Shown piece after piece: positions 3,101 through 62,865 of a stretch of 64,000 nt of DNA. Below the pieces are notes generated by a model that saw only the letters and a list, made by a program, of their open reading frames with translations, made no database searches and was not told the origin of the DNA. The DNA is from Chiloscyllium plagiosum (Eukaryota): positions 80,727,187-80,791,186 of the forward strand of contig NC_057718.1 in assembly GCF_004010195.1 (NCBI RefSeq). Reading direction: 5' to 3'. A program made the translations under genes and the position numbers. Position 1 is the first letter of the stretch. Every line of letters begins with the position of its first letter.

Positions 3101-3894
3101 CATTCATTCACAAGGTGGATGCATTTGAAGAGTGGTGTGTGCAGGTCATGCCCGAGCATCATCCTTGCACACTGCAGTTGGCCGTTGTGTTGTCCACATC
3201 AAAGCACTGCAATCCTGAATGACACAATTCAAGTATCTTGATCCTGAAGCTATCTACAATCAAGATGGCAGAGTTGTTATTGTGAAAGGTTGTTTACAAT
3301 TACATGTTACCCGAAATATCTATGTACATTCAGTATGTTGTTTTCTTCCTCTATCTCCCACTACATCTAACTGCAGTCCTGGAGTGAAGGGAGCCTCCCA
3401 CTGTTGTTGATCTGGAAAACTTAGGCATGTGGCCCCAGGATCTGTTTGGGCCTAGAGGGCTCTGACCTGCAGAGTCTGCCCCACCCGCATACAGGCTCAC
3501 CCTCCTTGGTTCCTTGGAGTCCTGCAGTTTTGTCATGAAAGGCAGGAGCAAGGTGCAGGAACCACATGTCTCTGGTGTCCTTCAAAGAGCCTGAGTCTAC
3601 TTCCCCACCTATGGGTTCCTGCCTGTCTCTCTGAAAAGAAGTAGAACCCAGAGTTAGATTGAGGTCCCTTATCCTTTTCTTACCTTCCATTGATTCAGAG
3701 TACCTATGGCTAGATAGAGTATAGGCTCATGTGCAAATCCAGGAGGCACAGAGGGGACTAGACCTGGGTTCCATGTTAGTTGCTGAACACTCCATGGAGA
3801 TAGTTAAACACATGTATGCCAAAACCAGCATTGTTCTCTCACAAAGAGTGCTAAAGAAACCCAGCAGGTCTAATGGCATTTGTGGGGAGAGTCC

Positions 3895-4022
3895 ATTAAG
3901 AGTCATATTTGACTCGAGATAGTAACTTGTTTCACTCTGCACAGATGCTGTCAGACTTGCTGAGTTTCTCCAGCACTTTCAGTCTATATTTCAGATATTT
4001 AGCAACCACAGTACTTGCTTCT
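3895..4022 (+). mobile_element. Degenerate Penelope-like pLTR fragment
   Basis: cagatgctgtcagacttgctgagtttctccagcac matches the pLTR arms at 32581-32800 and 34070-34258. It is preceded by a stem II remnant gagtc-atattt-gactc. Confidence 0.55.
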
Positions 4023-10644: not shown

Positions 10645-13600
10645 AGTCAAAAGGGAGAGGGGCTAGCAGGAGGTCATTGTACACATTGGAGCTAACGACA
10701 TAGGAAGAGAAAAGGATGAGGCTCTGAGGAGAGAATATGGAAGTTAGGCAAGAATTTAAAACGGAGGTCCTTGTGGGTAGGATTATCTGGTTTACTCCTG
10801 GTGCCAAAAGCTAGTGAGAATAGGAATAGGGGAATAGAGCAGATGAATGCATGACTGAGGAGCTGGTGTAGGGGAGACGGATTCACATTTTTGGATCATT
10901 GGAATCTCTTCTGAGATAGGAGTGATCTGTATAAGAAGGACAGGTTGCACCTGAATTGGAAGGGGGCTAATATACTGGCGGGGAGATTTGCTAGAGGTCA
11001 TCAGGAGGATTTAAGCTGATAAAGTGGGAAGATGGGACCCAGAGACTTAGTGAGGAAAGAGATCAGTTGGAGATTAGTAAAGTTGGGAAAAGGAGCAAGT
11101 CAAACAGTCAGGGCAGGTAGGAACAAAACAGAGAATGAGGTATAACTAATAATTTAAACTACATTTATTTCAATGCATGAGGTCTAACAAGTAAGACAGA
11201 TGAACTTAGGGTATAGTTGGGAACATGGGACCATGATACCATAGTAATTGCAGAGATGTGGCTCAGGAATGGACAGAACTGGCAGCTTAATGTTCTAGGG
11301 TATAGATGGTACAGGAAGGATAGAAAGGGAAGCAAGACAGTAGGGTGAGTGGTGTTTTTGATTATTGATAATATTACAGCTATACTTAGGGAGGATATTC
11401 CTGGGAACGGATGTTATTCGGGTGGAATTGAGAAATAAGAAAGGGATGATCACCTTATTGGGATTGTACTATAAATCTGAGGAGCAGGAGAATCGACATT
11501 TTCCCCCAGCCCATAAGCTTTATTCCTAATGAAGGGCTTATGCCCAAAATGTTGATTCTCCTGCTCCTCAACCGCTGCCTGACCTACTGTGCTTTTCCAG
11601 CACCACACTCTCAACTCTGATCTCCAGCACCTGCATTCCTTACCTTCTCCTGTGCAGTAGATCCCCCAATAGTCAGCAGGAAATTCAGAAACAAATTTGT
11701 AAGGAGATTGCAGTTATCTGTAAGAATAGGAGGGTGGCTATGGTAAGGGATTTTAAATTTCCAAACAAAAACTGGGACTGCCATAGTGTTAAAGGCTTGG
11801 ATGGAGAGGAATTTGTTAAGTGTGTACAAGAAAATTTTCTGATTCAGTATGTGGATGCATCTACTGGAAAAGGTGCAAAACCTGACCTACTCTTGGGAAA
11901 TAAGGCAAGGCAGGTAACTGAGGTGTCAGTCGGGGAGGACTTTGGGCCAGTGGCCATAATTCTATTAGTTTTAAAATAATGATTGAAAACGATAGACCGA
12001 ATCTAAAAGTTAATGTTCTAAATTGGAGGAAGGCCAATTTTGACTGTATTCAGCAAGAACTTCTAAAAATTGTTTGGGTGCGGAATATTTGCAGGCAAAG
12101 TAAAGGCTGGACAGTGGGAAGCGTTCAAAAATGAGGTAAAGCGAGTCCACTGACAACATGTTCCTATTAGGGTGAAGGACAAGGCTGTAGGTGTAGAAAA
12201 TGCTGGATGACCTGAGAAATTGAGACTTTGGTCAAGAAAAATAAGGAAGCATATGTCAGGTATCGAGTGAATCCTTAAAAGAGTATAAAGGTAGTAGTAT
12301 ACTTAACAGGGAAATCAGGAGGGCTGAAAGGGGACATGAGATACCTTTGACAAATAGGGTTAAGGAGAATCCAAAGAGATTTTGTAAATACATTTAAGAC
12401 GAAAGGGTAACCAGGGAGAGAATAGAGCCCCTTAAAAGTCAGCAAGGCTACCTACACGTAGAGCTGCAGGAGACGGGGGAAAGACGAAATGAGTATTTTG
12501 CATCAGTGTTTACTGTGGAGAAGGATTTGGAAGATACAGAACGTGAGGAAATAAATGGTGACAGTTTGAAAAATGTCCATATTACAGAGGACGAGATGCT
12601 GGATGTCTTAAAATGCATAAAGGTGGATAAATCCACGCGACCTGGTCAGGTATACCCTGAAACTCTGTGGGAAAGCTAGGGAAATGATTATTGGTCCCCT
12701 TGCTGATATATTTATACTTTTGATAGCCACAGGTGAGGTGCCGAAAGACTGCAGGTTGGCTTACGTGGTGTCACTATTTTAAAAAGGTGATAAGAAAAAG
12801 CTAGGGAACCTTAGACCGATGACTCTGACATTGGTGGTGCATAAGTTTTTGGAGGGATGCCTGAGGGATAGGATTTACGTGTATTTGGAAAGACAAGTAC
12901 TGATTAGGGATAGTCAACATGGCTTTGTGTGTGGGAAATCATATCTCACAAACTTGATTGAGTGATTTGAAGAAGTAACAAAGAAGATTGATGAGGTGCA
13001 AAGCAGTGGATGTGATCTATATGGACTTCAGTAAGGCATTCAAAAGGTTCCTCGTAGTAGACTGGTTAGCAAGGTTAGATTACATGGAATACATGGAGAA
13101 CTAGCCATTTGGATACATAACTGGCTTGACGGTAGAAGACAGAGGGTGGTGGTGGAGAGTTGCTTTTTAGACTGGACGCCTGTGTCCACCAGTGTGCCAC
13201 AAGGATCGGAACTGGGTCTGCTACTTTTTGTCATTTATAGAAATGATTTGGATGTGAACGTAGGAGATATGGTTAGTTACAGATGACACCAAAATTGGAG
13301 GTGTAATAGACAGTGAAGAAGGTTACCTCAGAGTACAATGGGCTTGATGAGGATGGGTCAATGGACCAAGGAGTAGTAGATGGAGTTTAATTTAGATAAG
13401 TGTGAGGTGCTGCATTTTGGAAAGGCAAATCAGGGCAAGACTTACCTACTTAATAGTAACGTTCTGGAGAGTATTGCTCAACAAAGATACCTTGGAGTGC
13501 AGGTTCATAGTTCCTTGAAAGTGGAGTATTGGGTAGATAGGATAGCGAAGAAGGCATTTGGTATGCTTTCCTTTATTAGTCAGTACATTATGTATAGGAG

Positions 13601-19500: not shown

Positions 19501-19680
19501 TCAAATTTAATCAATTAATTTAAGTTATGCCCAGGACACTAAAACCCAACTGAGTTTGAATTTATTGTTTTGACAATATCGGACCAATGAGAGGGAATGA
19601 TACTGGGGGATTTAAAAAAGTAGTTGAAACTTTATTGCTGGAACAGCACAGCAGGTCAGGCAGCATCCAGGGAACAGGAG

Positions 19681-19716
19681 ATTCGACGTTTCGGGCACAG
19701 GCCCTTCTTCAGGAAT
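19681..19716 (-). ncRNA. Minimal type I hammerhead ribozyme motif in a Penelope pLTR
   Basis: Minus strand reads AUUC-CUGAAGA-A-GGGC(CUGU)GCCC-GAAA-CGUC-GAAU. Stem I AUUC/GAAU, 4-bp stem II, palindromic ACGU in place of stem III, GUC cleavage triplet. Confidence 0.75.
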
Positions 19717-19983
19717 GAGCAGAGAGTGTTCAGCAGGAGAAGATAAAAGGTAGGGAGGAGGGACTTGGAGGAGGGGCGTTGGAAATGTGATAGGTGGAAA
19801 GAGGTCAAGGTGAGGGTGATAGGTCGGAGTAGGATGGAGGCGGAGAGGTCAACAAGAAGACTGCAGGTCAGGAAGGCGACGTGGTCGACGGTGCCCTCCA
19901 CCGCATCTCCTCCACTTCCAACTCCCCTCCTCCAAGTCCCTCCTCCCTACCTTTTATCTTCTCCTGCTGAACACTCTCTGCTC

Positions 19984-20019
19984 ATTCCTGAAGAAGGGCA
20001 TGTGCCCGAAACGTCGAAT
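19984..20019 (+). ncRNA. Minimal type I hammerhead ribozyme motif in a Penelope pLTR, sense to PACRG
   Basis: AUUC-CUGAAGA-A-GGGC(AUGU)GCCC-GAAA-CGUC-GAAU. Predicted cut after C20015. Confidence 0.75.
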
Positions 20020-20059
20020 CTTCTGTTCCCTAGATGCTGCCTGACCTGCTGTGCTGTTC

Positions 20060-20168
20060 NNNNNNNNNNNNNNNNNNNNNNNNNNNNNNNNNNNNNNNNN
20101 NNNNNNNNNNNNNNNNNNNNNNNNNNNNNNNNNNNNNNNNNNNNNNNNNNNNNNNNNNNNNNNNNNNN
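20060..20168. other. Assembly gap (109 N)
   Basis: Run of n characters directly next to the pLTR inverted repeat. Confidence 1.
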
Positions 20169-23100
20169 GCGGAGGGAGTGGTCTCTACGGAAAGCTGATA
20201 GGGGAGGGGAGGGAAATATATCCTTGGTGCTGGGGTCTGTTTGGAGGTGGCGGAAGTGACGGCGGATGATGCGCTGTACATGGAGATTGGTGGGGTGGTA
20301 GGTTAATTAAAAAAGTAGGCATTTTGAAAATTGGTCAGAGCAACTGCCTCAGAGCTGGAGAGCTAACTGCCCATCTAAATTCTTGCTCTCAAAGAAATTT
20401 GAACACACTCTATATCAAAAGATATTTTTTCCTGTAAAACATACTCAGAATAAAAATAAAGAAGACCCAGGGAGTTCAGCAGACAGCAGATTGAAGACAG
20501 CAGAGAAGACAGAGAGTCTGTGGACTTGAGATTAAGTTAATGTAATGTTTAATAATTGTGTTATTGGAATAGCATGTTAATAGCATTGTGTTCAGTTAGA
20601 GGAAAGAGTGTGCAGTTTATTAATAGTTTTGTTTGGTGCTCTATTTGGAAAATAAATTGTTATTTTTCTTTAAACAGTGGAAATTAGGAGTTGTCTGTCA
20701 CTCACTCACATTTTAACAAATTATGAGGCGAGGCAAGCTTTTCGGAGTATTTGGTTTTAATTAACAGAGGGATACGACCTCCGCATCATAACAGTTTGGG
20801 AGTTCATCGTCCAGCTTTTGGACAGGTTTAAATGGACCTGGACAGACTTGGACAGGTTTGGGGTACAAAGGTTCCAGCAAATTTAAACATACTTGCCGAT
20901 TAGGTGTCCTAGATCTTTAAATAAAACTTAGGTAAGAAAAATCTGTTTAATTTTGGCTACTTGTAGTTGGTTAGATTAAAAGTGAGAGAAATAAAACTTT
21001 CAATTACTAAATGTTTTCTTGGGAGTGGAGGAAGTAACTTTGGGAATTTTACATAAGCTGAGCAGGAAAAAGCTACTGCAATTGGCAGACAATCTGGAAC
21101 TGGAATTGCCTGTGTCTCCAAAAATGAAGAGGTTATTTTGAAATAGCTCAACAATTAAATGTGTTGGAAAGGCTGTTAGAATCTTTGGAAATGGCTAAAA
21201 TGCAATTACAAATGAAGCAACTTGAGTTAGAAAGTACAGAAAGGGAGAAAGGATTCTTAGCTGAGCAAAGAGAGAGAGAAGAAAGAGGAAGAGAAGAAAA
21301 AGAACATGAGAGAAGGTTCTTAGCTGAACAAAAAGAAAGAGAAAATTTGAACTTCAGAATTTGTGAATTAATTAGGATGATCAAGTTACCGGAATGGAGT
21401 TGAAAGGAAAAGGTAGAAATGGATACAAATATGTGAAAACATTGCCGAATTTCAATGAGAAAGATGTTGTTGAAGCCTTTTTTATTTCTTTGAAAAATTA
21501 GCCAGGCAGATGGAATGGCCAGACACCTTGTGAATAATGCTCGTTCAGACAAAGCTGGTAGGCAGGGCTAATGGGGTATTTGCACTGCGATCAAATCAAG
21601 AGATTATGCAGATGTCAAACAGGCTATTTTGAGTGCCTATGAATTGGTACCATGGAACACTATGCTGCCAGTCTTGTCCATCCCTGAGCCATGTTTCTGT
21701 AATAGCTATAGTATCCCAATCCCATATTCCCAAGCATGCTCTATGGTCATCTGCCTTACCTGTCAGGCCTCTTGCCAAGCACCTGTCTGCCTTCGCTATT
21801 TGACTTGCTCCTCTTATCTATTGTACCAGCCTCAGCCTTTTCTCTTTCCTCACTATAGCTTTCGTTTGCACCCCACCTTTATTAGTGTAAAGCTTCACGA
21901 GTAGCACAGGAAAATTTCCTTTCAAGAGCCACATCCCTTTCCCTGCTTATGCCATTGGTGTCAAAATGGCTGGCACTGGAAAAGAACAGCAGGTCAGGCA
22001 ACATCCAAGGAACAGGAGAGCCAATGTTTCAGGAGTAAGCCCTTCATTCATTCACAACAATGTCCTGCTGGTCACTTTCCCCTTGCAGACCATTCTGCAC
22101 CTACACTGAGACATGCTGGCACCAGGAGGCAGCACACCATCCCGATGTTTTGCTCACGGCTGCAGAAGCATCTATGTTTGCCCAGACTGCACCTCAATTG
22201 CTTGGAACCTGAAATACCTGCTATTAAAGTAGAGCCAGTCATGGTACCAGAAACCTGGCTGTCAGTGCTATGTTCCTTTGAGAGGCCATTACTCCTTCTA
22301 GTATCCAAAATGGCATATCTGTTTCAGATGTGGACAGCCACAGGAGACTCCTATACTACCTGGCTGCCTCTCCTATTATTACTAGCAGTCAGCCATCTCC
22401 CTGACTGTATCTGCAAATTCTCCACCTTCCGAAAACTGCCATCTATCACACCCCCTAGCCCTTGTAAACTCTTCATTGCCTCTAACTGCCACTCGAACCA
22501 ATCCATGCAATCTGATAGGATTCACAACCAAACACACTTCCTATAGATATTGTCTTCCAGAGCATTCAAATTCTCCCTGATCTCCTATATCTGACAGGAA
22601 AAGCACATTATCCAACGAAGAGTCATTTCGGCCCTTTTAACAATCTACAGACCCAGAAATTACCTAAAAATGGAACACAGCACAACTAGCTCAAAAACAC
22701 AGCATTAGCACAGTCTTACTTGTCAAAAACACTGCTCTTGGATAATGTAATACCAATACTTAATATTAAAAGTAAATCAAGAGACAGATCTTAGTATAAA
22801 CAAAAAAATGCCTTCGCCTTACTCAATATTATAGATTTACAGAAGAAAAGGTTTAGAAGTTTTATACATCTTAAAATCAAATACTTAGCTCATCAGGCTC
22901 AAAAATCAAAGATCATCCTCTTCTCCTGTAGTTTCATGCAGTGATTCTTTTAAAAATCACCGATACCTCTGCAAGTGTGCATGAGGCTGGATGTTAGACC
23001 TCACATGTCAACGATGAAACTGCACTGCTTGTTTGTTATTTCAGTGCAACCTCAATCTCTAGAGTCTTTGTGCAATTTCTCTGTCTGACAGCTGTGAAAC

Positions 23101-30334: not shown

Positions 30335-31160
30335 TTCCAGTAAGATGGGGATGAAGTAGGGCTTCTGAAGGTGGGATCATCCACTCTATCCACTTGTCTT
30401 CTTGTTTCTTCCTTTTTTTCTCTCTGCTCTCTTTTTTTTCTCTTCTAATTTATTTTACTAACCTCTTGGTGAAGTGCTCAGTTACGGCAATTGCATCAGC
30501 AGCAGCAAGTGAGCCTAGCAGTGTGGACTCATTGGTGTGGCTTTGGGTTCCTGGTGGTGTCTGCTTCATGGAGGTGCTGGTAGAGGTGAATTTGGGCCTA
30601 GTACTAGAGTCAGTTATATCAGCAACGGCTGCATTGGCGAGGTGGGCCCAAAGTGAACTCATGGCATCAGTGAACTCAAATCTGGACAGTACCCAGTGGC
30701 ATGTGCATTGGCAAGGTCAAGCAAGGATTCATCGTAGTGAGGGCGTCAGTGGAGGCAAGATGGCACTGAAAAATTGCAACTTTTGTTGTGGTGGCAATGG
30801 CATGGCGAAGGGGACTTGTGCCTGGCCACCAGCCCCATGGGGAGAAAGTGAGGTCTGCAGATGCTGGAGATCAGAGCTGAAAATGGGTTGCTGGAAAAGC
30901 GCAGCAGGTCAGGCAGCATCCAGGGAACAGGAGAATCGACGTTTCGGGCATAAGCCCTTCTTCACCAGCCCCATGGCACATGATGGAGTATTTGACAAGA
31001 AGGACTGTAAAATTGGACTTTTTTTTATTTCTTCATTTTTCTGCCTTAAATTCTATGTTTTGGTTTATTTTCTGCGACAAACTACAGGACACCGTACAGT
31101 ATAAAAATTTCTACTGTATTTTGTAACAAGATACACATGGCAATAAATAAATCAAATAAA
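30335..31160 (+). mobile_element. Non-coding ~700-bp interspersed repeat, probably a non-autonomous non-LTR element, copy 1
   Basis: Colinear with the reverse complement of 44255-45008. Starts CTTCCAGTAAGATGG and ends caataaataaatcaaat. Confidence 0.6.
30841..30964 (-). mobile_element. Solo ~124-bp Penelope pLTR insertion truncated inside the hammerhead core
   Basis: TSD CACCAGCCCCATGG at 30827-30840 and 30963-30976. Minus strand TGAAGAAGGGCTTATGCCCGAAACGTCGA. Confidence 0.85.
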
Positions 31161-32584: not shown

Positions 32585-32800
32585 GACCTGAAATAGGAAA
32601 TAAAAACAGAAAATGCTGGATAAACTCTGGCTGCATCTGGGAGAAAGAAACAATTAATATTTTGAATCTCATCATTCTTTTCGGTTCTTGAAGTTGAAAG
32701 GTTAACTCTGTTTCTCACTTCATATTGCCATACCTGTTGAGTTTCTCTAGCTTTTTCTATTTTTATTCTCAATTTCCAGCAGCTGCAGTTTTATGTTGTT
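32585..32800. mobile_element. Old fold-back Penelope pLTR element
   Basis: Inverted arms aaaacagaaaatgctggataaactc ... gagtttctctagctttttctattttt. Confidence 0.6.
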
Positions 32801-32839: not shown

Positions 32840-33370
32840 CAAAAATAACTGCAGATAATGGAATCCAAGATAGATAATCAGGAGGCTGGAAGAACACAGC
32901 AAGCCAGGCAGCATCACGAGGTGCAGAAGTTGACGTTTCAGAAGTAACCCTTCTTCAGAACTGGGGATGGGTGTAAGGAGAGCTGCAGGTAAAAAGGCTT
33001 GCTGGGACAGGGTGGTGGTGGGGCTAGGTGAAGACAGGTAGAGGGTACGACCTGGTTGGTCAATAGGAGGAATGACTTCAATAGGTAGCTGGGAGGAGTG
33101 GAAAGGTGGGGGAGGGGGAGGGGGAGGGGCTGTGAAGGGAGTTGAGAAATGGGAGGGAGATTATTTGAAATTGGAGAACTCAATATTGAGTCCTCCAGGC
33201 TGTAGCCTGCCCAGACAGAAGATGAGGTGTTTTTCCTCCAAGTTGCGGTTTGGTGTGTTGTGGCAATGGAAGAGGTCAAGGATGGTCATGTCAGAAAGGG
33301 AGTGGGAAGGAGAATTAAAATGGGCGGTGACTGGGAGGTCCGGTCGCCACCAGTACGCCTGGCTTTCAGC
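32840..33370 (-). mobile_element. Penelope-like element 3' part: GIY-YIG endonuclease C-terminus plus pLTR with hammerhead motif (32928-32962)
   Basis: ORF 33161-33345 reads PDLPVTAHFNSPSHSLSDMTILDLFHCHN..EEKHLIFCLGRLQPGGLNIEFSNFK*. Downstream AGUU-CUGAAGA-A-GGG(UUACU)UCU-GAAA-CGUC-AACU. Confidence 0.85.
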
Positions 33371-36274: not shown

Positions 36275-36984
36275 GTAAGGTTTTGAATTTTAGAATTTTA
36301 CATTTCCCTCTTGTTAATGGCACAGTATCGTTTTATGGATCGTCAAAAATTAGAGAAAAGGCTGCTTGGTGCAGCATGTGGGTACTGATCATTTGAGCTA
36401 GTTATGCCAGTATGAATGAAAGTTTTAAAATAGTATTCTTCCAAAAAATCAAAACTTTTCGTGTCAAGATCCAATATATTATACTGAATTTACATTTGGA
36501 CACAGATTTAATAACTGCAGTTAAAAATACAGCTCTGATCGTACTTGTTTATTTCTTTCAATTTATTCCCAAATTTATACACTTCCCAAACTGAAAAGGT
36601 ATGACCCTGACTGCCTCCAATTCCCCAATGTTACTGCCCACTAGATGGTATGCAAGAGCAACCAGGATTAACTTGCACATTAATTATGCCACTCTGAATA
36701 TTGGAACGGCAGAGGGCTAAATCATATGATGTTTCAGTTAAATGTAATTTTCTATGAGTTTCATGGAGGTGTTCTCCTCATGAGGCCTAGCAAGTTTTTT
36801 GACATTTTCATCCCAATAATATCTCTTTAGTAACTAATCACACCCTTATGATATCCATCTCATCCAATGTGAGTCCAACTCTCCCACTAATTGTAGTTGG
36901 AAGTATTCATTACGTTGCATATCCCAGGATATACTGATGTACCTTGCTTCAGTGCCATTTTTAAAATACTCTGACATGTCTAGT

Positions 36985-40465: not shown

Positions 40466-41364
40466 CTAACTTCGGTTAACTAGATTATGATTATACTGCA
40501 TGAGATGCTCAGGCTTGCTTGGAGTAATAGTTGGAGTGCAAACAGTGGGATCATGCCTCAGGGTCACAAGGATTGCAGTCTTCATGGGTCTTTTCACCTT
40601 CAGTATATGGGTGTGTGACCAATGCAGTTGCCTTTTGAAGAGGTTCATATTGCAGCCCCCTTCCTCACAGTGCAAAGCTTACCCCCCGGTATGGTCACAT
40701 CACTTCCGTTGCATACTTGTGATTTACTGAATGAAGGAAGGCATAGTGGCTGCTCCTTGGACAGTGAGGTCCAGCCTTCACCTCTCAATATAGGTGCATT
40801 TCAATACGTAAATCCCTTCCTAGTTGCCCAGAGCAAAGGCAAGATGGACAATAAGAAAGTGAGTAATCAGAGAACATGTGAGCAATCCTGAGATGGAGCC
40901 TGGACCATGAGCTGGATGATGCTCCCTGTGTGCAAAGTATCCTTGCAACAATATTCCAGTGGGAGGTGCTGGTGTGTAGCCTAAAATGCTGCATTACAAT
41001 GCAGAAGGATGCAGTAAGTCGATCAGCGATGTGCCATGGTGGTGAAGAAAGACTGGCATGTGTTAGATACTAACATCCTTGGACATGGGGTGCATGTGAG
41101 CACAATCCGGGGAGTATGTCCTAAGATGTGGTATAGACAAGGTACAATTACAACATTTAAAAGACATTTGGACAGGAACATGCAGAGGAAAGATTTTGGA
41201 ATGCTGGAGGCGAGATACAGGTAAATATGACTAGTTCAGTTTAGGGAACCTGATTGGCATGAACCAGTTGGACCAAAGGGTCTGTTTCCCTGCTTATAGC
41301 CTACATGTTGGTACCAAGTGTCAAAGATGGCAATCTGGAGGAGCAAGTGACAAGCTGGAATGAC

Positions 41365-43700
41365 CATAGAGTCATAGAGATGTACAGCATGGAAAGAGAC
41401 CCTTCGGTCCAACCCGTCCATGCCGACCAAATATCCCAACCCAATCTAGTTCCACCTACCAGCACCCGGCCCATATCCCTCCAAACCCATCCTATTTATA
41501 TACCCATCTAAATGCCTTTTAAATGTTGCAATTGTACCAAACTCCACAACATTCTGTGGCAGCTCATTCCATACACATACCACCCTCTGCGTAAAAATGT
41601 TGCCCCTTAGGTCCCTTTTATATCTTTCCCCTCTCACCCTAAACCTATGCCCTCTAGTTCTGGACTCCCCAACCCCAGGGAAAAGACTTTGCCTATTTAC
41701 CCTATCCATGCGCCTCATAATTTTGTAAACTTCTACAAGGTCACCCCTCAGCCCCCGACGCTCCAGGGAAAACAACCCCAGCCTGTTCAGCCTCTCCCTA
41801 TAGCTCATATCCTCCAACCCTGCAACCTCCTTGTAAATCCTTTTTTGAACCCTTTCAAGTTTCACAACATCTTTCTGATAGGAAGGAGATCAGAATTGCA
41901 CATATTCCAACAGTGGCCTAACCAATGTCTTGTACAGCTGCAATATTTTTTTAGATTAGACTCCCTACAGTGTGGAAACAGGCCCTTCAGCCCAACAAGT
42001 CCACACTGACCCTCCGAAGAGTAACCCACCGATCCCCCTACATTTACCCCTGACTAATCTACCTAACACTATGGACAATTTAGCATGGCCAATACACCTG
42101 ACCAACTCAATACTCTGACCAATAAAGGAAAGCCTTCTTCACTATCCTATCTACCTGCGACTCCACTTTCAAGGAGCTATGAACCTGTACTCCAAGGTCT
42201 CTTTATACAGCAACACTCCCTAGGACCTTACCATTCTGTGTATAAGTCCTGCTAAGATTTGCTTTCCCAAAATGCAGCACCTCGCATTTATCTGAATTAA
42301 ACTCCATCTGCCACTTCTCAGCCCATTGGCCCATCTGGTCCAGATCCTGTTGTAATCTGAGGTAACCCTCTTCGCTGTCCACTACACCTCCAAGTTTGGT
42401 GTCATCTGCAAACTTACTAACTGTACCTCTTATGCTCGCATCCAAATCATTTATGTAAATGACAAAAAGTAGAGGGCCCAGCACCGATCCTTGTGGCACT
42501 CCACTGGTCACAGGCCTCCAGTCTGAAAAACAACCCTCCACCACCACCCTCTGTCTTCTACCTTTGAGCCAGTTCTGTATCCAAATGGCTAGTTCTCCCT
42601 TTATTCCGTGAGATCTAACCTTGCTCATCAGTGTCCCATGGGGAACCTTGTCAAATGCCTTTCTGAAGTCCATATAGATCACATCTACCATTCTGCCCTC
42701 ATCAATCTTCTTTGTTACTTCTTCAAAAAACTCAATTAAGTTTGTGAGACATGATTTTCCACGCACAAAGCCATGTTGACTATCCCTAATCAGTCCTTTT
42801 CTTTCCAAATACATGTACATCCTGTCCCTCAGGATTCCCTCCAACAACTTACCCACCATCTACATCAGGCTCACTGGTCTATAGTTCCCTGGCTTGTCTT
42901 TACCACCCTTCTTAGACAGTGGCACCATGTTTGCCAACCTTCAGTCTTACGGCAGCTCACCTGTGACTATCGATGATACAAATATCTCTGCAAGAGGCCC
43001 AGCAATCACTTCTCTAGCTTCCCACAGAGTTCTCGGGTACACCTGATCAGGTCCTGGGGATTTATCCACCTTTAACCGTTTCAAGACATCCAGCACTTCC
43101 TCCTCTGTAATCTGGACATTTTTCAAGATGTCATCATCTATTTCCCTACAGTCTATATCTTCCATATCCTTTTCCATAGTAAATACTGATGCAAAATATT
43201 CATTTAGTATCTCCCCCATTTTCTGTGGCTCCACACAAAGGCCGCCTTGCTAATCTTTGAGAGGCCCTATTCTCTCCCTAGTTATCCTTTTGTCCTTAAT
43301 ATATTTGTAAAAACCCTTTGGATTCTCCTTAATTCTATTTGCCAAAGCTATCTCATGTCCCCGTTTTGCCCTCCTGATTTCCCTCTTTAGTATACTCCTA
43401 CTTTCTTTATACGCTTCGAAGGATTCCCTCGATCTATCCTGTCTTTACCTGACATATGCTTCCTTCTTTTTCTTAACCAAACCCTCAATTTTTTTAGTCA
43501 TCTAGCATTTCCGATACCGACCAGTCTTTCCTTTCACCCTGACAGGAATATGCTTTCTCTGGATTCTTGTTGTCTCATTTCTGAAGGCTTCCCATTTTCC
43601 AGCTGTCCCTTTACCTGCGAACATCTGCCTCCAATCAGCTTTCTAAAGTTCTTGCCTAATACCGTCAAAATCGGCCTTTCTCCAATTTAGAACTTCAACT
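41365..43700 (-). mobile_element. Young CR1/HER1 LINE, 5'-truncated, with long open RT segments
   Basis: ORF 42203-42859 has QHGFVRGKSCLTNLIEFF, DFRKAFDKVPH, SGVPQGSVLGPLLFVIYINDL and KFADDTK. Frameshifts between segments. Confidence 0.95.
41951..42103 (-). mobile_element. 5'-truncated HE1/V-SINE inserted in CR1
   Basis: (ttaga)n tail and gacaatttagcatggccaatacacctgacc, shared with the full SINE copies. Confidence 0.8.
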
Positions 43701-45008: not shown

Positions 45009-45468
45009 ATGAACATCATATTTCATCTTTTTTCTCTGTTCTCATTAGTCTGTGCACCAATTTCATCCATGACTCAAAATAACCAAACTTATCACTCCTT
45101 TGGTGCCCACGCTTTCTTTACTGTCTTTGTCTAATTATATATCAATGTGCATATTTCTGATTCTCTTTTCTAATCCTCTGTATCTTTTGCTGTCTCATGT
45201 TGCTTTTCAGTTCTAAATCTAAAAATTGCAGCTGAGATTCCCCTTTGTATCTCTTTGCCATATTATTTTCTATGTGTCTGTACTTCTTTTTTAATTTGCT
45301 TGAAGGGCCCACTGTGGCCTGTCTGCACAACCAGAGCCACTCCAAAGGTTGAAGAAGCCAGAGATAAATGTTGACCTTTATGTCAGAAGTAACAGGACTT
45401 ACTCATCTGTGCCCACAAATAAGATCCCAAAACCCCACCAAAACCTCCTTGTGTCATTCACTTTCTGG

Positions 45469-45695
45469 AGAAAGTAAGGTCTGCAGATGCTGGAGATCAG
45501 AGCTGGAAATGTGTTGCTGGAAAAGCGCAGCAGGTCAGGCAGCATCCAGGGAACAGGAGAATCAACGTTTCGGGCATAAGCCCTTCTTCCTTTCGGGCAT
45601 AAGCCCTGAAGAAGGGCTTATGCTCGAAACGTCGATTCTCCTGTTCCCTGGATGCTGCCTGACCTGCTGCGCTTTTCCAGCAACACATTTCCAGC
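45469..45695. mobile_element. Fold-back (palindromic) Penelope pLTR mini-element centred on hammerhead motifs
   Basis: TSD TCATTCACTTTCTGG at 45454-45468 and 45696-45710. About 90-bp near-perfect inverted arms. Core CTGAAGAAGGGCTTATGCTCGAAACGTC at 45606-45633. Confidence 0.9.
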
Positions 45696-45879
45696 TCATT
45701 CACTTTCTGGTTGGGAGCTGCCTCCAGGCCACCTGACTGCCAGTAGTCTGTCAACCATTTACCCTTCAAAATCTGACATGCTTGCATATGTGGGAAAAAG
45801 CAAAATCTGCAGGGAGGAGGAATGGACTGACCAGGGTACTTTGGTTCAAGACACCTTTCAAGTAGGGAGAGTATAAAGG

Positions 45880-47073: not shown

Positions 47074-47385
47074 CATAGAATCCCTATAGTGTGGAAGCAG
47101 GCCATTTGGCTGGTCACGTCCGCACTGGACCTCCAGGAGTATCCCACCCAAACACACACCCTGTTTTCCATGGTTAATACCCATAGTCTGCACATCCCTC
47201 AACACTATGGGCAATTTAACATGGCCAATCCACCTAACCTGTACATCTTTGGACTGTGGGAGGAAACAGGAGGAAACCCACACAGACACAGAGAGAATGT
47301 GCAAACACCACACAGTCACCTGAGGCTAAGATTGAACACAGGTCCCTGGCACAGAGAGGCAGCTAAATGGGCCACAATGCCACCC
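47074..47385 (-). mobile_element. HE1/V-SINE, diverged
   Basis: tRNA-like head, V-domain (gggtttcctc..ctcccacagtccaaaga) and CR1-like tail. Confidence 0.85.
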
Positions 47386-47875
47386 ATGAGCCAACGTGCC
47401 ACCTTGATTATAAGCCATGTAACCAGGGAAGAAAAGAAGGCTTTAAACTAAACGGTGGTGATGAAGTATCAAACTTGAATAGATGCAGCACATTGAGGGG
47501 GGGAGGCAAAGTATGACAGCAAACAAATGTCACAGAATGGTAGTAAGAGACAGATAGAATAACTCTAAGAATACACCAACATACAAGACTCGGTATACAA
47601 CAGTGACATCAGAAAAAAACGAAAGACTCTATATGTGAATATTCATAGTATTCTTAATTTAATTTAAAAATTGATATACACTGAAGTAAATAAATATGAT
47701 CGGATGCCTGTTATAGAGATGTGGTTTCACGATGACAAAGTTTGTATCTAAGATATTGAGATGTTTATGATATTCAAGAAGAACAGGAATTTAGGTAAAG
47801 GTCAAGAAGTAATATTGTTAATCAATGCATCAGTGCAATATTTGGAAATGACCTTAGGAATATTAGGGGAGGCAA

Positions 47876-48700
47876 GTCATAGAGTCATAGAGATGTACAG
47901 CATGGAAACAGACCCTTTGGTCCAACCCGTCCATGCTGACCAGATATTCAAACCCAATCTAGTCCCACCTGCCAGCACCCGGCCCATATCCCTCACAGTG
48001 AGGCACAGTGGCTAGCACTGCTGCCTCATACTGCCAGAGGCCTGGGTTCAATTCCCGCCTCAGGCAACTGTCTGTGTAGAATTTGCACATTCTCCCCGTG
48101 TCTGCGTGGGTTTCCTCCGGGTGCTCTGGTTTCCTCCCACAGTCCAAAAATGTGCAGGTCAGGTGAATTGGCCATGCTAAATTGCCCATTGTGTTAGGTG
48201 AAGGGGAATGAGTCTGGGTGGGTTGCTCTTCGGAGGGTCGGTGTCGGCTTGTTGGGCCGAAGGGCCTGTTTCCATACTGTAAGTAATCTAATCTCATCTC
48301 ATCTCAAACCCTTCCTATTCATATGCTCATCCAGATGCCTTGTAAGTGTTGCAATTGTACCAGTCTCCACCACTTCCTCTGGCAGCTCATTCCGTACACG
48401 TACCACCGTCTGTGTGAAAAGGTTGCCCCATAGGTCTCTTTTATATCTTTCCCCTCCCACCCTAAACCTATGCCCTCTAGTTCTAGACTCCCCGACCCCA
48501 GGGAAAATACTTTGTCTATTTATCCTATCCATGCCCCCTCATAATTTTGTAAACCTCTATAAGGTCACCCCTCAGCCTCTGATGCTTCAGGGAAAACAGC
48601 CCCAGGCTGTTCAGCCTCTCCCTATAGCTCAGATCCTCTAACCCTGGCAATATCCTTGTAAATCTTTTCTGAACCCTTTCAAGTTTCACAACATCTATCC
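47876..48700 (-). mobile_element. CR1/HER1 3' portion split by a SINE
   Basis: Minus ORFs DVVKLERVQKRFTRILPGL and RNELPEEVVE. Tail gtcatagagtcatagag. Confidence 0.9.
47992..48303 (+). mobile_element. HE1/V-SINE inserted in a CR1 3' end
   Basis: Head ggcacagtggctagcactgctgcctca, B box ggttcaattcc, V-domain and (tctaa/tctca)n tail. Confidence 0.9.
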
Positions 48701-61963: not shown

Positions 61964-62865
61964 TTAAAAATCACACAACACCAGGTTATAGTCCAACGGG
62001 TTTAATTGGAAGCACACTGGCTTTCGGGGGGTCGCTCCTTCATCAGGTGGTAGTGGAGGGCTCAATCCTAACACAGAATTTATAGCAAAAATTTACATTG
62101 TGATGTAACTGAAAATATACATTGAAAAATTGATTGTCTGTTGAGTCTGTTTGAATACCATGATAGTTTCACTTCTTTCATATGTAAATCACAAAACCCT
62201 TTTTTTGAAAGTTGCATTCTCAGGTTAGCTGTTAACAATGGGTGATGGCTAGACAATATGTTGAAGCTGTTAGCCCCTTGTGTTCTCTGTCTATGCCATG
62301 ATGTTTGGATTGATTCTAATCTAAAAAGTGAGATAACGGAGTTTTACATGAATTCATGCAGTTTTTGAGCAAAGTACAATGTAACTCTGCAAGTACAAAT
62401 TCACCCCACAAAATATATGTGTGCATGTGGGTCTTTGTCTGTCTGTGTGTGTGTCTGTCTGGGTTGGGGGTTGTGAGTGTGAAAACGTGTATGTGTGTGT
62501 GTAGTGAGTGTCGAGTGTCTTAAGTCTGTGAGGGGGTGCATGTGTGAGTGTGGGAGTGTGTGTATGTAAGGGTGTGTGTGGGTATCTGTGTGCGCGTCTG
62601 TGTATATGTGCGCACGTGTGTATGTGTGTATAGGAGTGTGTGTGTGTGTGTGTAGGAGTGTCTCTGTGTGTGTATAGTGCAATGCTAGTCACCTGTAATG
62701 TGACATGAACCTAAGGTCCAGGTTGAGGCCCTCCCTATGGATACCGAACTTAGCTATCAGCCTCTTTTCGTTGCTGCCTTTCCCGAAGTCCGCCTTAGAG
62801 GATGGTCATTTGAAGGTCCCAGGTCGAATGTCCTGGACCACTGAAGTGTTCCCCAACTGTGAGGG
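61964..62865 (-). mobile_element. Penelope-like element of a different family: GIY-YIG C-terminus, (CA)n-rich UTR, pLTR with mutated hammerhead (62015-62049)
   Basis: TSD ATTTGGAG at 61956-61963 and 62866-62873. Minus strand VGEHFSGPGHSTWDLQMTIL*GG..LIAKFGIHREGLNLDLRFMSHYR*. Motif CAC-CUGAUGA-A-GGAGCGACCCCCC-GAAA-GCCA-GUG. Confidence 0.85.
62417..62675. repeat. Imperfect (TG)n simple repeat inside the Penelope UTR
   Basis: Direct dinucleotide-rich tract. Confidence 0.9.

Follow-up and report, generated by a model that had tools for sequence, protein, structure and literature searches.

The closest described systems are cited here from excerpts of the respective publications. For Penelope-like elements (PLEs), head-to-head pLTRs with palindromes at the junction and target-site duplications (TSDs) of 8–10 bp were reported by Arkhipova et al. 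2013 (PMC3846280), where the junction palindromes are read as self-priming on an antisense RNA template. A PLE tail of 30–40 bp, often present on one end only, was described by Craig et al. 2021 (PMC8557442), and the origin of the tandem and inverted repeats is called undefined in the same text. Inverted pLTRs and 3' extensions are listed as PLE peculiarities in a curation guide (PMC8969392). According to Frangieh et al. 2024 (PMC11167929), the tail lies between two adjacent start sites of reverse transcription, both target strands are cut and extended, and the main template is uncleaved RNA. For the minimal hammerhead of metazoan PLEs (Cervera and de la Pena 2014, PMC4209133), pairs of motifs lying 100–700 bp apart on opposite strands were reported in Schistosoma; sharks are unmentioned in the excerpt of that paper. 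Non-LTR retrozymes (Li, Clavereau and Pollet 2026, 10.64898/2026.07.22.740005) occur as dispersed monomers and are present in the one cartilaginous fish sampled.

The window analysed here is a stretch of 64,000 nt from Chiloscyllium plagiosum (GCF_004010195.1, contig NC_057718.1, forward strand, 80,727,187 to 80,791,186), and all positions below refer to it. An exact 15-nt direct repeat, TCATTCACTTTCTGG, was located at 45454–45468 and 45696–45710, enclosing 227 bp. The chance of such a repeat pair is about 6e-7 (rough estimate, 400 boundary offsets allowed). The features of the locus and of its relatives are as follows.

45454–45468, plus strand: left copy of the probable TSD, 15 bp; its terminal GG coincides with the natural 3' end of the family at 45467
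45469–45499, minus strand: 31-nt tail, left arm only, recognised by comparison of the arms and from two classes of family ends
45469–45589, sense on the minus strand: left arm, assigned to the 3' end module of a PLE; starts with GAAGAAG
45590, no strand: single C that fits neither adjoining template; an untemplated base or a later mutation, explained by no model tried
45591–45607, plus strand: inverted 17-nt copy of stem II and GAAA, forming a 17-bp hairpin with 45613–45629 (5-nt loop)
45606–45633, plus strand: minimal hammerhead core motif, predicted cut after 45633; 5' strand of helix I absent
45606–45697, sense on the plus strand: right arm, tail-less, same module as in the left arm; its terminal TC overlaps the right duplication
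45696–45710, plus strand: right copy of the probable TSD, 15 bp, exact repeat
30827–30976, minus strand: solo copy with no inverted arm (unit 30841–30962) and its own exact 14-bp duplication
19612–20318, no strand: more extended fold-back belonging to a sister subfamily (88% identical), with a duplication of 12 bp and its junction well upstream of the core
11474–11650, no strand: older fold-back of the focal module within a presumably CR1-like LINE fragment; junction unlike the focal one

The inverted arms (45500–45589 and 45608–45697) are 90 nt each, with two mismatches at 45564 and 45624. Both are one module on opposite strands, the 5' ends meeting at the centre. The left arm exceeds the right arm by 31 nt (45469–45499), which makes the element an asymmetric palindrome. 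No ORF and no direct pLTR lies between the arms, and the whole element is reduced to 227 bp. Folded as RNA, it gave -200 kcal/mol (z = -27), and 0 of 200 shuffled sequences were equally stable. Inside the insertion, a direct repeat of 17 nt was found (45568–45584 and 45591–45607), and the CCT at 45605–45607 is common to the inverted copy and the right arm. The initial annotation had described an insertion of about 227 bp with a 15-bp duplication, which the exact repeats and the 90-bp arms with their two mismatches confirm. The two inverted pLTR arms meeting at the ribozyme also stand, although the left-only tail was absent from that description. The duplicated 16-mer is real but one base longer, and its reading as an extra ribozyme stem II does not hold.

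Each arm corresponds to the 3' terminal module of a PLE with reverse transcriptase (RT) and GIY-YIG domains. The module was assigned to PLEs indirectly, because the sister insertion at 19612–20318 holds a fragment of a PLE reading frame. This fragment (46 aa, 20169–20306, minus strand) matched 20 of 23 candidate proteins with a best identity of 87%; the named matches are proteins of Chiloscyllium punctatum, Rhincodon typus and Stegostoma tigrinum, which point to a host genome of carpet-shark type. When matched proteins were scanned, an RT and/or GIY-YIG match was obtained in 4 of 4, with two matches above the Pfam cut-off and some below. One protein, P0007, extends beyond the endonuclease, and the added residues may represent a translated hammerhead core. 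For a second family, the upstream sequence at 33164–33358 gave a 59% alignment to the end of one such PLE protein. The PLE origin that had been proposed earlier is thus upheld by the coding fragment in the sister-subfamily copy. Pfam returned no match for two short PLE fragments (0/2). In an Atlas search with two short PLE fragments, one was left without a usable match and the other gave a lead (GIY-YIG on 15% of the cluster, score 0.89). Exact-pattern scans of viral contigs, metagenome contigs and prokaryote genomes yielded 0 matches. Separately, a single longer PLE end of another family was noted at 32860–33358 on the minus strand, consisting of a GIY-YIG-type C-terminus (last 58 codons), a 3' spacer, a hammerhead motif and a tail; it adjoins an old fold-back at 32590.

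The layout of the locus, with head-to-head arms, one-sided tail, variable duplication and junction palindrome, is the published pattern of PLE insertions. As in the inverted-pLTR insertions of PMC3846280 and of the Fig. 2 legend of PMC8557442, one arm is shorter, a tail in the range of 30–40 bp is confined to one end, and a hammerhead lies in the pLTR. The features present at the locus comprise a minimal hammerhead in the pLTR, the 31-nt one-sided tail, 5' truncation combined with a head-to-head inverted copy, and a TSD of variable length, which at 15 bp is longer than the 8–10 bp of PMC3846280. The view that the locus represents an undescribed system is not supported; its layout is in PMC3846280 and PMC8557442, and opposite-strand hammerhead pairs are in PMC4209133. 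In a literature search that covered few subscription papers, in part as excerpts, no paper came up that deals with fold-back stumps in sharks or with a 5' end set at helix I.

Being small, non-coding, palindromic and flanked by a duplication, the insertion could also be taken for a DNA-transposon MITE with terminal inverted repeats. This reading is next to impossible, since the inverted repeat stops short of the left terminus at the unpaired 31-nt tail and the sequence is the end of an RT and GIY-YIG element. It was refuted by the solo copy and by the varying length of the duplications (15, 14 and 12 bp in the three insertions), in line with the initial annotation. Non-LTR retrozymes are likewise short and non-coding, carry a type I hammerhead and are related to PLE pLTRs (10.64898/2026.07.22.740005). 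A retrozyme is defined there as a head-to-tail tandem with at least two complete hammerheads, whereas the focal arms are inverted and both motifs are incomplete; this class was rejected as well.

The focal core architecture matches the minimal hammerhead of PMC4209133, and the hammerhead motif named initially is upheld. It is laid out as CUGAAGA (45606–45612), an unpaired A, a 4-bp stem II (45614–45625), GAAA (45626–45629), CG and UC. In common with the motifs described in the excerpt of PMC4209133 are the core boxes, the unpaired base before G10.1-C11.1, the palindromic 15.2/16.2 lacking a loop 3, and the occurrence of solo motifs genome-wide. Unlike those motifs, both focal arms lack the 5' strand of helix I, and the pair is adjacent and mutually blocking. 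The left arm starts at GAAGAAG and so also lacks the first two core bases, C-U. In the fold of the whole element, the pair probability of stem II is about 1e-14. A working ribozyme at this locus is unlikely on these predictions, because the core is either truncated or buried in the 90-bp duplex. The "extra stem II plus GAAA" was rejected as a functional feature; on the strand where it reads in this way, no complete CUGA box stands before either copy. An Rfam search of the element gave no hammerhead match at E<=1. A miRNA hairpin identity was also discarded, as the two weak Rfam matches were below the gathering score and the match to mir-3127 reflects the hairpin only.

Complete minimal hammerheads including helix I were found in the copies at 19988 and 19712. 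In each arm of 19612–20318 the minimal hammerhead is whole and its 4-bp helix I (AUUC/GAAU) pairs perfectly, and this fold-back would be a better candidate than the focal element for an intact hammerhead motif. A hammerhead-like core of a different family (CTGATGA ... GAAA) was detected by motif scan at 62046 on the minus strand.

For analysis of the target site, contigs and reads from 4 of 24 listed runs, three of them DNA runs (X4, X5 and X8), were mapped on 45230–45625. A contig of a related organism, B, tracks the left flank exactly to 45468 and then continues with 491 nt that are absent from the mapped stretch; 7 substitutions and a 9-nt insertion were counted in 239 nt of left flank. A contig of organism A, from a second sample, matches with 0 differences until it ends 7 nt into the element. 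In run X5 the depth is zero over 45356–45453, which makes this run uninformative on the locus. The exact repeat and the departure of the organism-B contig at 45468 indicate that the 15-bp repeat is probably a true TSD, as claimed initially. Organism B appears to have the empty site, the letters past the breakpoint being unseen. Alleles present in both focal arms are common in organism A and rare in B (G at 45506: 23–27% vs 1.4% of summed depth). From the apparent empty site and the A-enriched arm alleles, the insertion seems to postdate the separation of the two organisms, which 2 differences in 90 nt fit roughly. Family 3' ends at 45467 were seen in 208, 143 and 201 contigs of the three DNA runs, and a second class of ends lies at 45507/45510, about 40 nt away. 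The outer end of the right arm (equivalent to 45500–45502) lies 5–10 nt outside these common inner ends.

Complex PLE structures often disturb short-read assemblies (PMC8557442); the sister fold-back 19612–20318 contains an assembly gap of Ns (20060–20168), and no listed contig spans the whole focal junction. That the palindrome itself is an assembly artefact is nevertheless very unlikely, given the exact 15-bp duplication, the two arm-specific substitutions and the apparent empty site in the related organism, and given that the second-sample contig crosses the left junction into the element, showing 0 differences.

The solo copy at 30841–30962 is the closest relative in the window (4 substitutions in 121 nt against the left arm) and stops at the core edge where the focal left arm stops. 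Copies of the module other than the focal ones were found at 30843 (the solo copy), 11531, 19622, 19988 and 21976, besides more distant families. In the fold-back at 11474–11650, the sense arm starts with ATTCC just before the core and has kept its tail, and the inverted arm is short. Three other fold-backs had been named initially, near 11474, 32585 and 34070, and these score above the best block-shuffled control (45, 41 and 55 vs 29, 30 kb of control); they are old, and a target duplication was sought at them and not found. Two PLE-end fold-backs, at 19612–20318 and 3847–3977, had been missed.

Several other structures in the window were recorded alongside. An old fold-back of a different PLE end family occupies 3847–4008, with one arm starting at a decayed core and the other ending short of the core. 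Directly after the 19612 element, a decayed insertion extends over 20307–21640; a stretch of it presumably resembles the SCAN/gag-like coding region of an LTR retrotransposon. Inverted repeats at 1655–2844, 41125–41538 and 47076–48195 are opposed LINE fragments, which we take to be CR1-like, and are unrelated to the PLE fold-backs. One CR1-like LINE fragment, at 36965, gave an RT match.

Among the focal-family fold-backs of the window (45454, 11474 and 19612), the junctions differ in 3 of 3, and those of the older fold-backs of other families (3847, 32590 and 34097) differ too. A second copy of the focal junction was found 0 times within the window. At least one arm ends at the 5' edge of the core in 5 of 6 fold-backs (judged by eye). 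For the mapped contigs, 20 of the 27 joints listed, with 207 more beyond these, land on 45601–45605, and among those listed they depart from 16 different points of the left arm, all within 45494–45561. At 8 of the 9 joint positions given with letters the core is again preceded by its natural ATT, and an overlap of 1–3 nt with the inverted arm was seen at 6. Stops at the predicted cut site (45563 in the left arm) were found at 0 of the 16 positions among the joints listed. One arm usually ends at the hammerhead 5' edge and not at the cut site, which argues for an uncleaved template. Of the uniform spread of inversion points along the pLTR, which the initial annotation had held against its own reading, one half was borne out: the end of one arm is spread along the pLTR, whereas that of the other gathers at the core's 5' edge. 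The short side of the joints was 19–23 letters, and only junctions starting near the core could appear as skips. Library preparation can make fold-back chimeras at inverted repeats (PMC10908179). The contig data, with these short sides, core-start bias and possible chimeras, support junction variety yet leave room for a propagating subset, and they can neither count copies nor link a junction to its outer ends.

A near-focal junction, one base shorter, recurs in all three DNA runs (10, 6 and 13 contigs), and its summed depth is high in X4. As a percentage of arm depth, the junction bin reached 0.7–2.5% in X4, 0.04–0.11% in X5 and 0.2–0.6% in X8, contig depth not being taken as copy number. For RNA, 1827 of 12,955,460 records mapped, with a mean depth of 1.6 in the junction bin vs 700–1090 on the arm (0.15–0.23%); hairpin RNA may be under-read. 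No RNA data set was listed as containing the locus. Read starts and ends formed no pile-up in a poly(A) single-cell run; this type of library is unsuited to ribozyme cuts, and nothing was concluded from it.

The recurrence of this junction next to stem II in both organisms, together with the high junction-bin depth in X4, would be expected of a non-autonomous palindromic family in which each fold-back is transcribed in full and PLE proteins insert it again as one unit. In cis, pLTR sequences suffice for mobilisation in trans (PMC3846280), and tandem retrozymes are reported as non-autonomous PLE derivatives (10.64898/2026.07.22.740005). Such a propagating family, put forward in the initial annotation, is not supported and is improbable in our judgement: the junctions differ among copies, the window holds no second copy of the focal one, and many different junctions occur in the contigs. 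The roughly 25-fold difference in junction depth between two runs of one organism is unlike a fixed genomic family, and the CCT/AGG micro-hairpin predicts recurrence at the junction in any case. Its RNA would moreover be a 90-bp duplex with core and stem II buried. No greater probability is given to the narrower version, in which only those fold-backs whose junction adjoins stem II would be transcribed again and re-inserted entire, as a PLE-carried palindromic family.

A separate observation was made in the RNA reads of the family in run X21. Within 45497–45577, the plus strand shows T>C, or A>G in the sense of the element, at 8 listed places, including the three A's of GAAA. The frequency was 5–31% in one read direction vs 1–9% in the other, and 0.02–2.8% in DNA contigs. 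The pattern looks like A-to-I editing of double-stranded RNA; against this, a subfamily difference also falls on 45577, rare variants are lost from contigs, and another sample supplied the RNA.

The locus is probably an inert PLE insertion. It is likely to have arisen by a single insertion of the approximately 120-nt 3' end module, from minimal hammerhead to tail, of an endonuclease-bearing PLE, with the inverted half made during integration. What was observed of this comprises the anatomy, the PLE link, the two classes of 3' ends, the differing junctions and the retention of an uncleaved core. De novo formation by reverse transcriptase, the other possibility raised initially, is favoured by the solo relative, the differing junctions and the 16 other inversion points. 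Both the cut site and all of stem II are present in the arms, which were therefore copied from uncleaved RNA.

The following course is proposed. A PLE protein would make a staggered cut with 15-nt 3' overhangs. One target end would prime reverse transcription at the outer start by a 2-nt GG/CC pairing, with the tail included, and synthesis would run to the hammerhead 5' edge, where templates end or the enzyme stalls. The other target end may be primed or joined near the inner start, with a 2-nt TC overlap. The bottom-strand cDNA, ending in CCT-TCTTC-AGG-3', would fold back on 3 bp with a 5-nt loop and copy about 14 more bases of itself, producing the "duplicated 16-mer". Finally, the two new strands would be connected, one odd base being left between them, and fill-in would complete the insertion. 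The bottom strand of the right arm's copy indeed has CCT-TCTTC-AGG at its end, followed by the complement of the preceding bases, which would explain the duplicated 16-mer with no need of an extra ribozyme stem. The focal junction thus fits snap-back of a cDNA 3' end made on a sense template, unlike the reading given in PMC3846280. Alternatively, the left arm could represent the initial cDNA, of which the right arm would be a snap-back copy made after a slip; because it carries the tail, the left arm cannot itself derive from the right one. Within the single-insertion origin, two RNA-templated primings were given slightly more than half of the weight, and the single-cDNA snap-back slightly less than half.

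Some details do not sit well with this origin. The C at 45590 fits neither the two-priming nor the single-cDNA version, and in the two-priming version the snap-back copy has G opposite T at 45624 and would need a later mutation. The recurrence of the one-base-shorter junction and the offset of the right arm's outer end from the common inner ends also count against it. A similar combination of an intact TSD, microhomology at the second priming and end-joining of two cDNAs is described for L1 twin priming and cDNA self-annealing in the excerpt of PMC11702581. Twin-primed L1 segments adjoin on the RNA (1–10 bp duplicated at most), whereas one and the same 90-nt segment is represented in both focal arms.

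Template switching can plausibly act on a long palindrome. The 17-nt repeat might accordingly have been added in a second step, by hairpin-templated polymerase slippage in replication or repair that later remodelled a simple fold-back or a solo copy. The simple form of the junction exists in contigs, and the odd C fits no integration model cleanly. This two-step origin leaves the C unexplained as well, the outer ends and the duplication are intact, and minority subfamily alleles such as the G at 45506 are common to both arms, as from one event; it was given little credence, if a shade more than the propagating family. The single insertion of a PLE 3' end module is preferred.

As an ordinary dead PLE insertion, the single locus has its value as a sample of junctions. 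A more general proposal, held tentatively and with less than even confidence, is that the junction spectrum reflects an origin of the head-to-head repeats of PLEs in which the 3' end of the cDNA snaps back on a template starting at hammerhead helix I. If true, the antisense template invoked in 2013 would no longer be required. The family is very abundant in this shark and short, and it offers many junctions for the study of PLE transposition. If, genome-wide, one arm is fixed at the hammerhead 5' edge and the other is variable with overlaps of 1–3 nt, snap-back would become testable with the protein system of PMC11167929.
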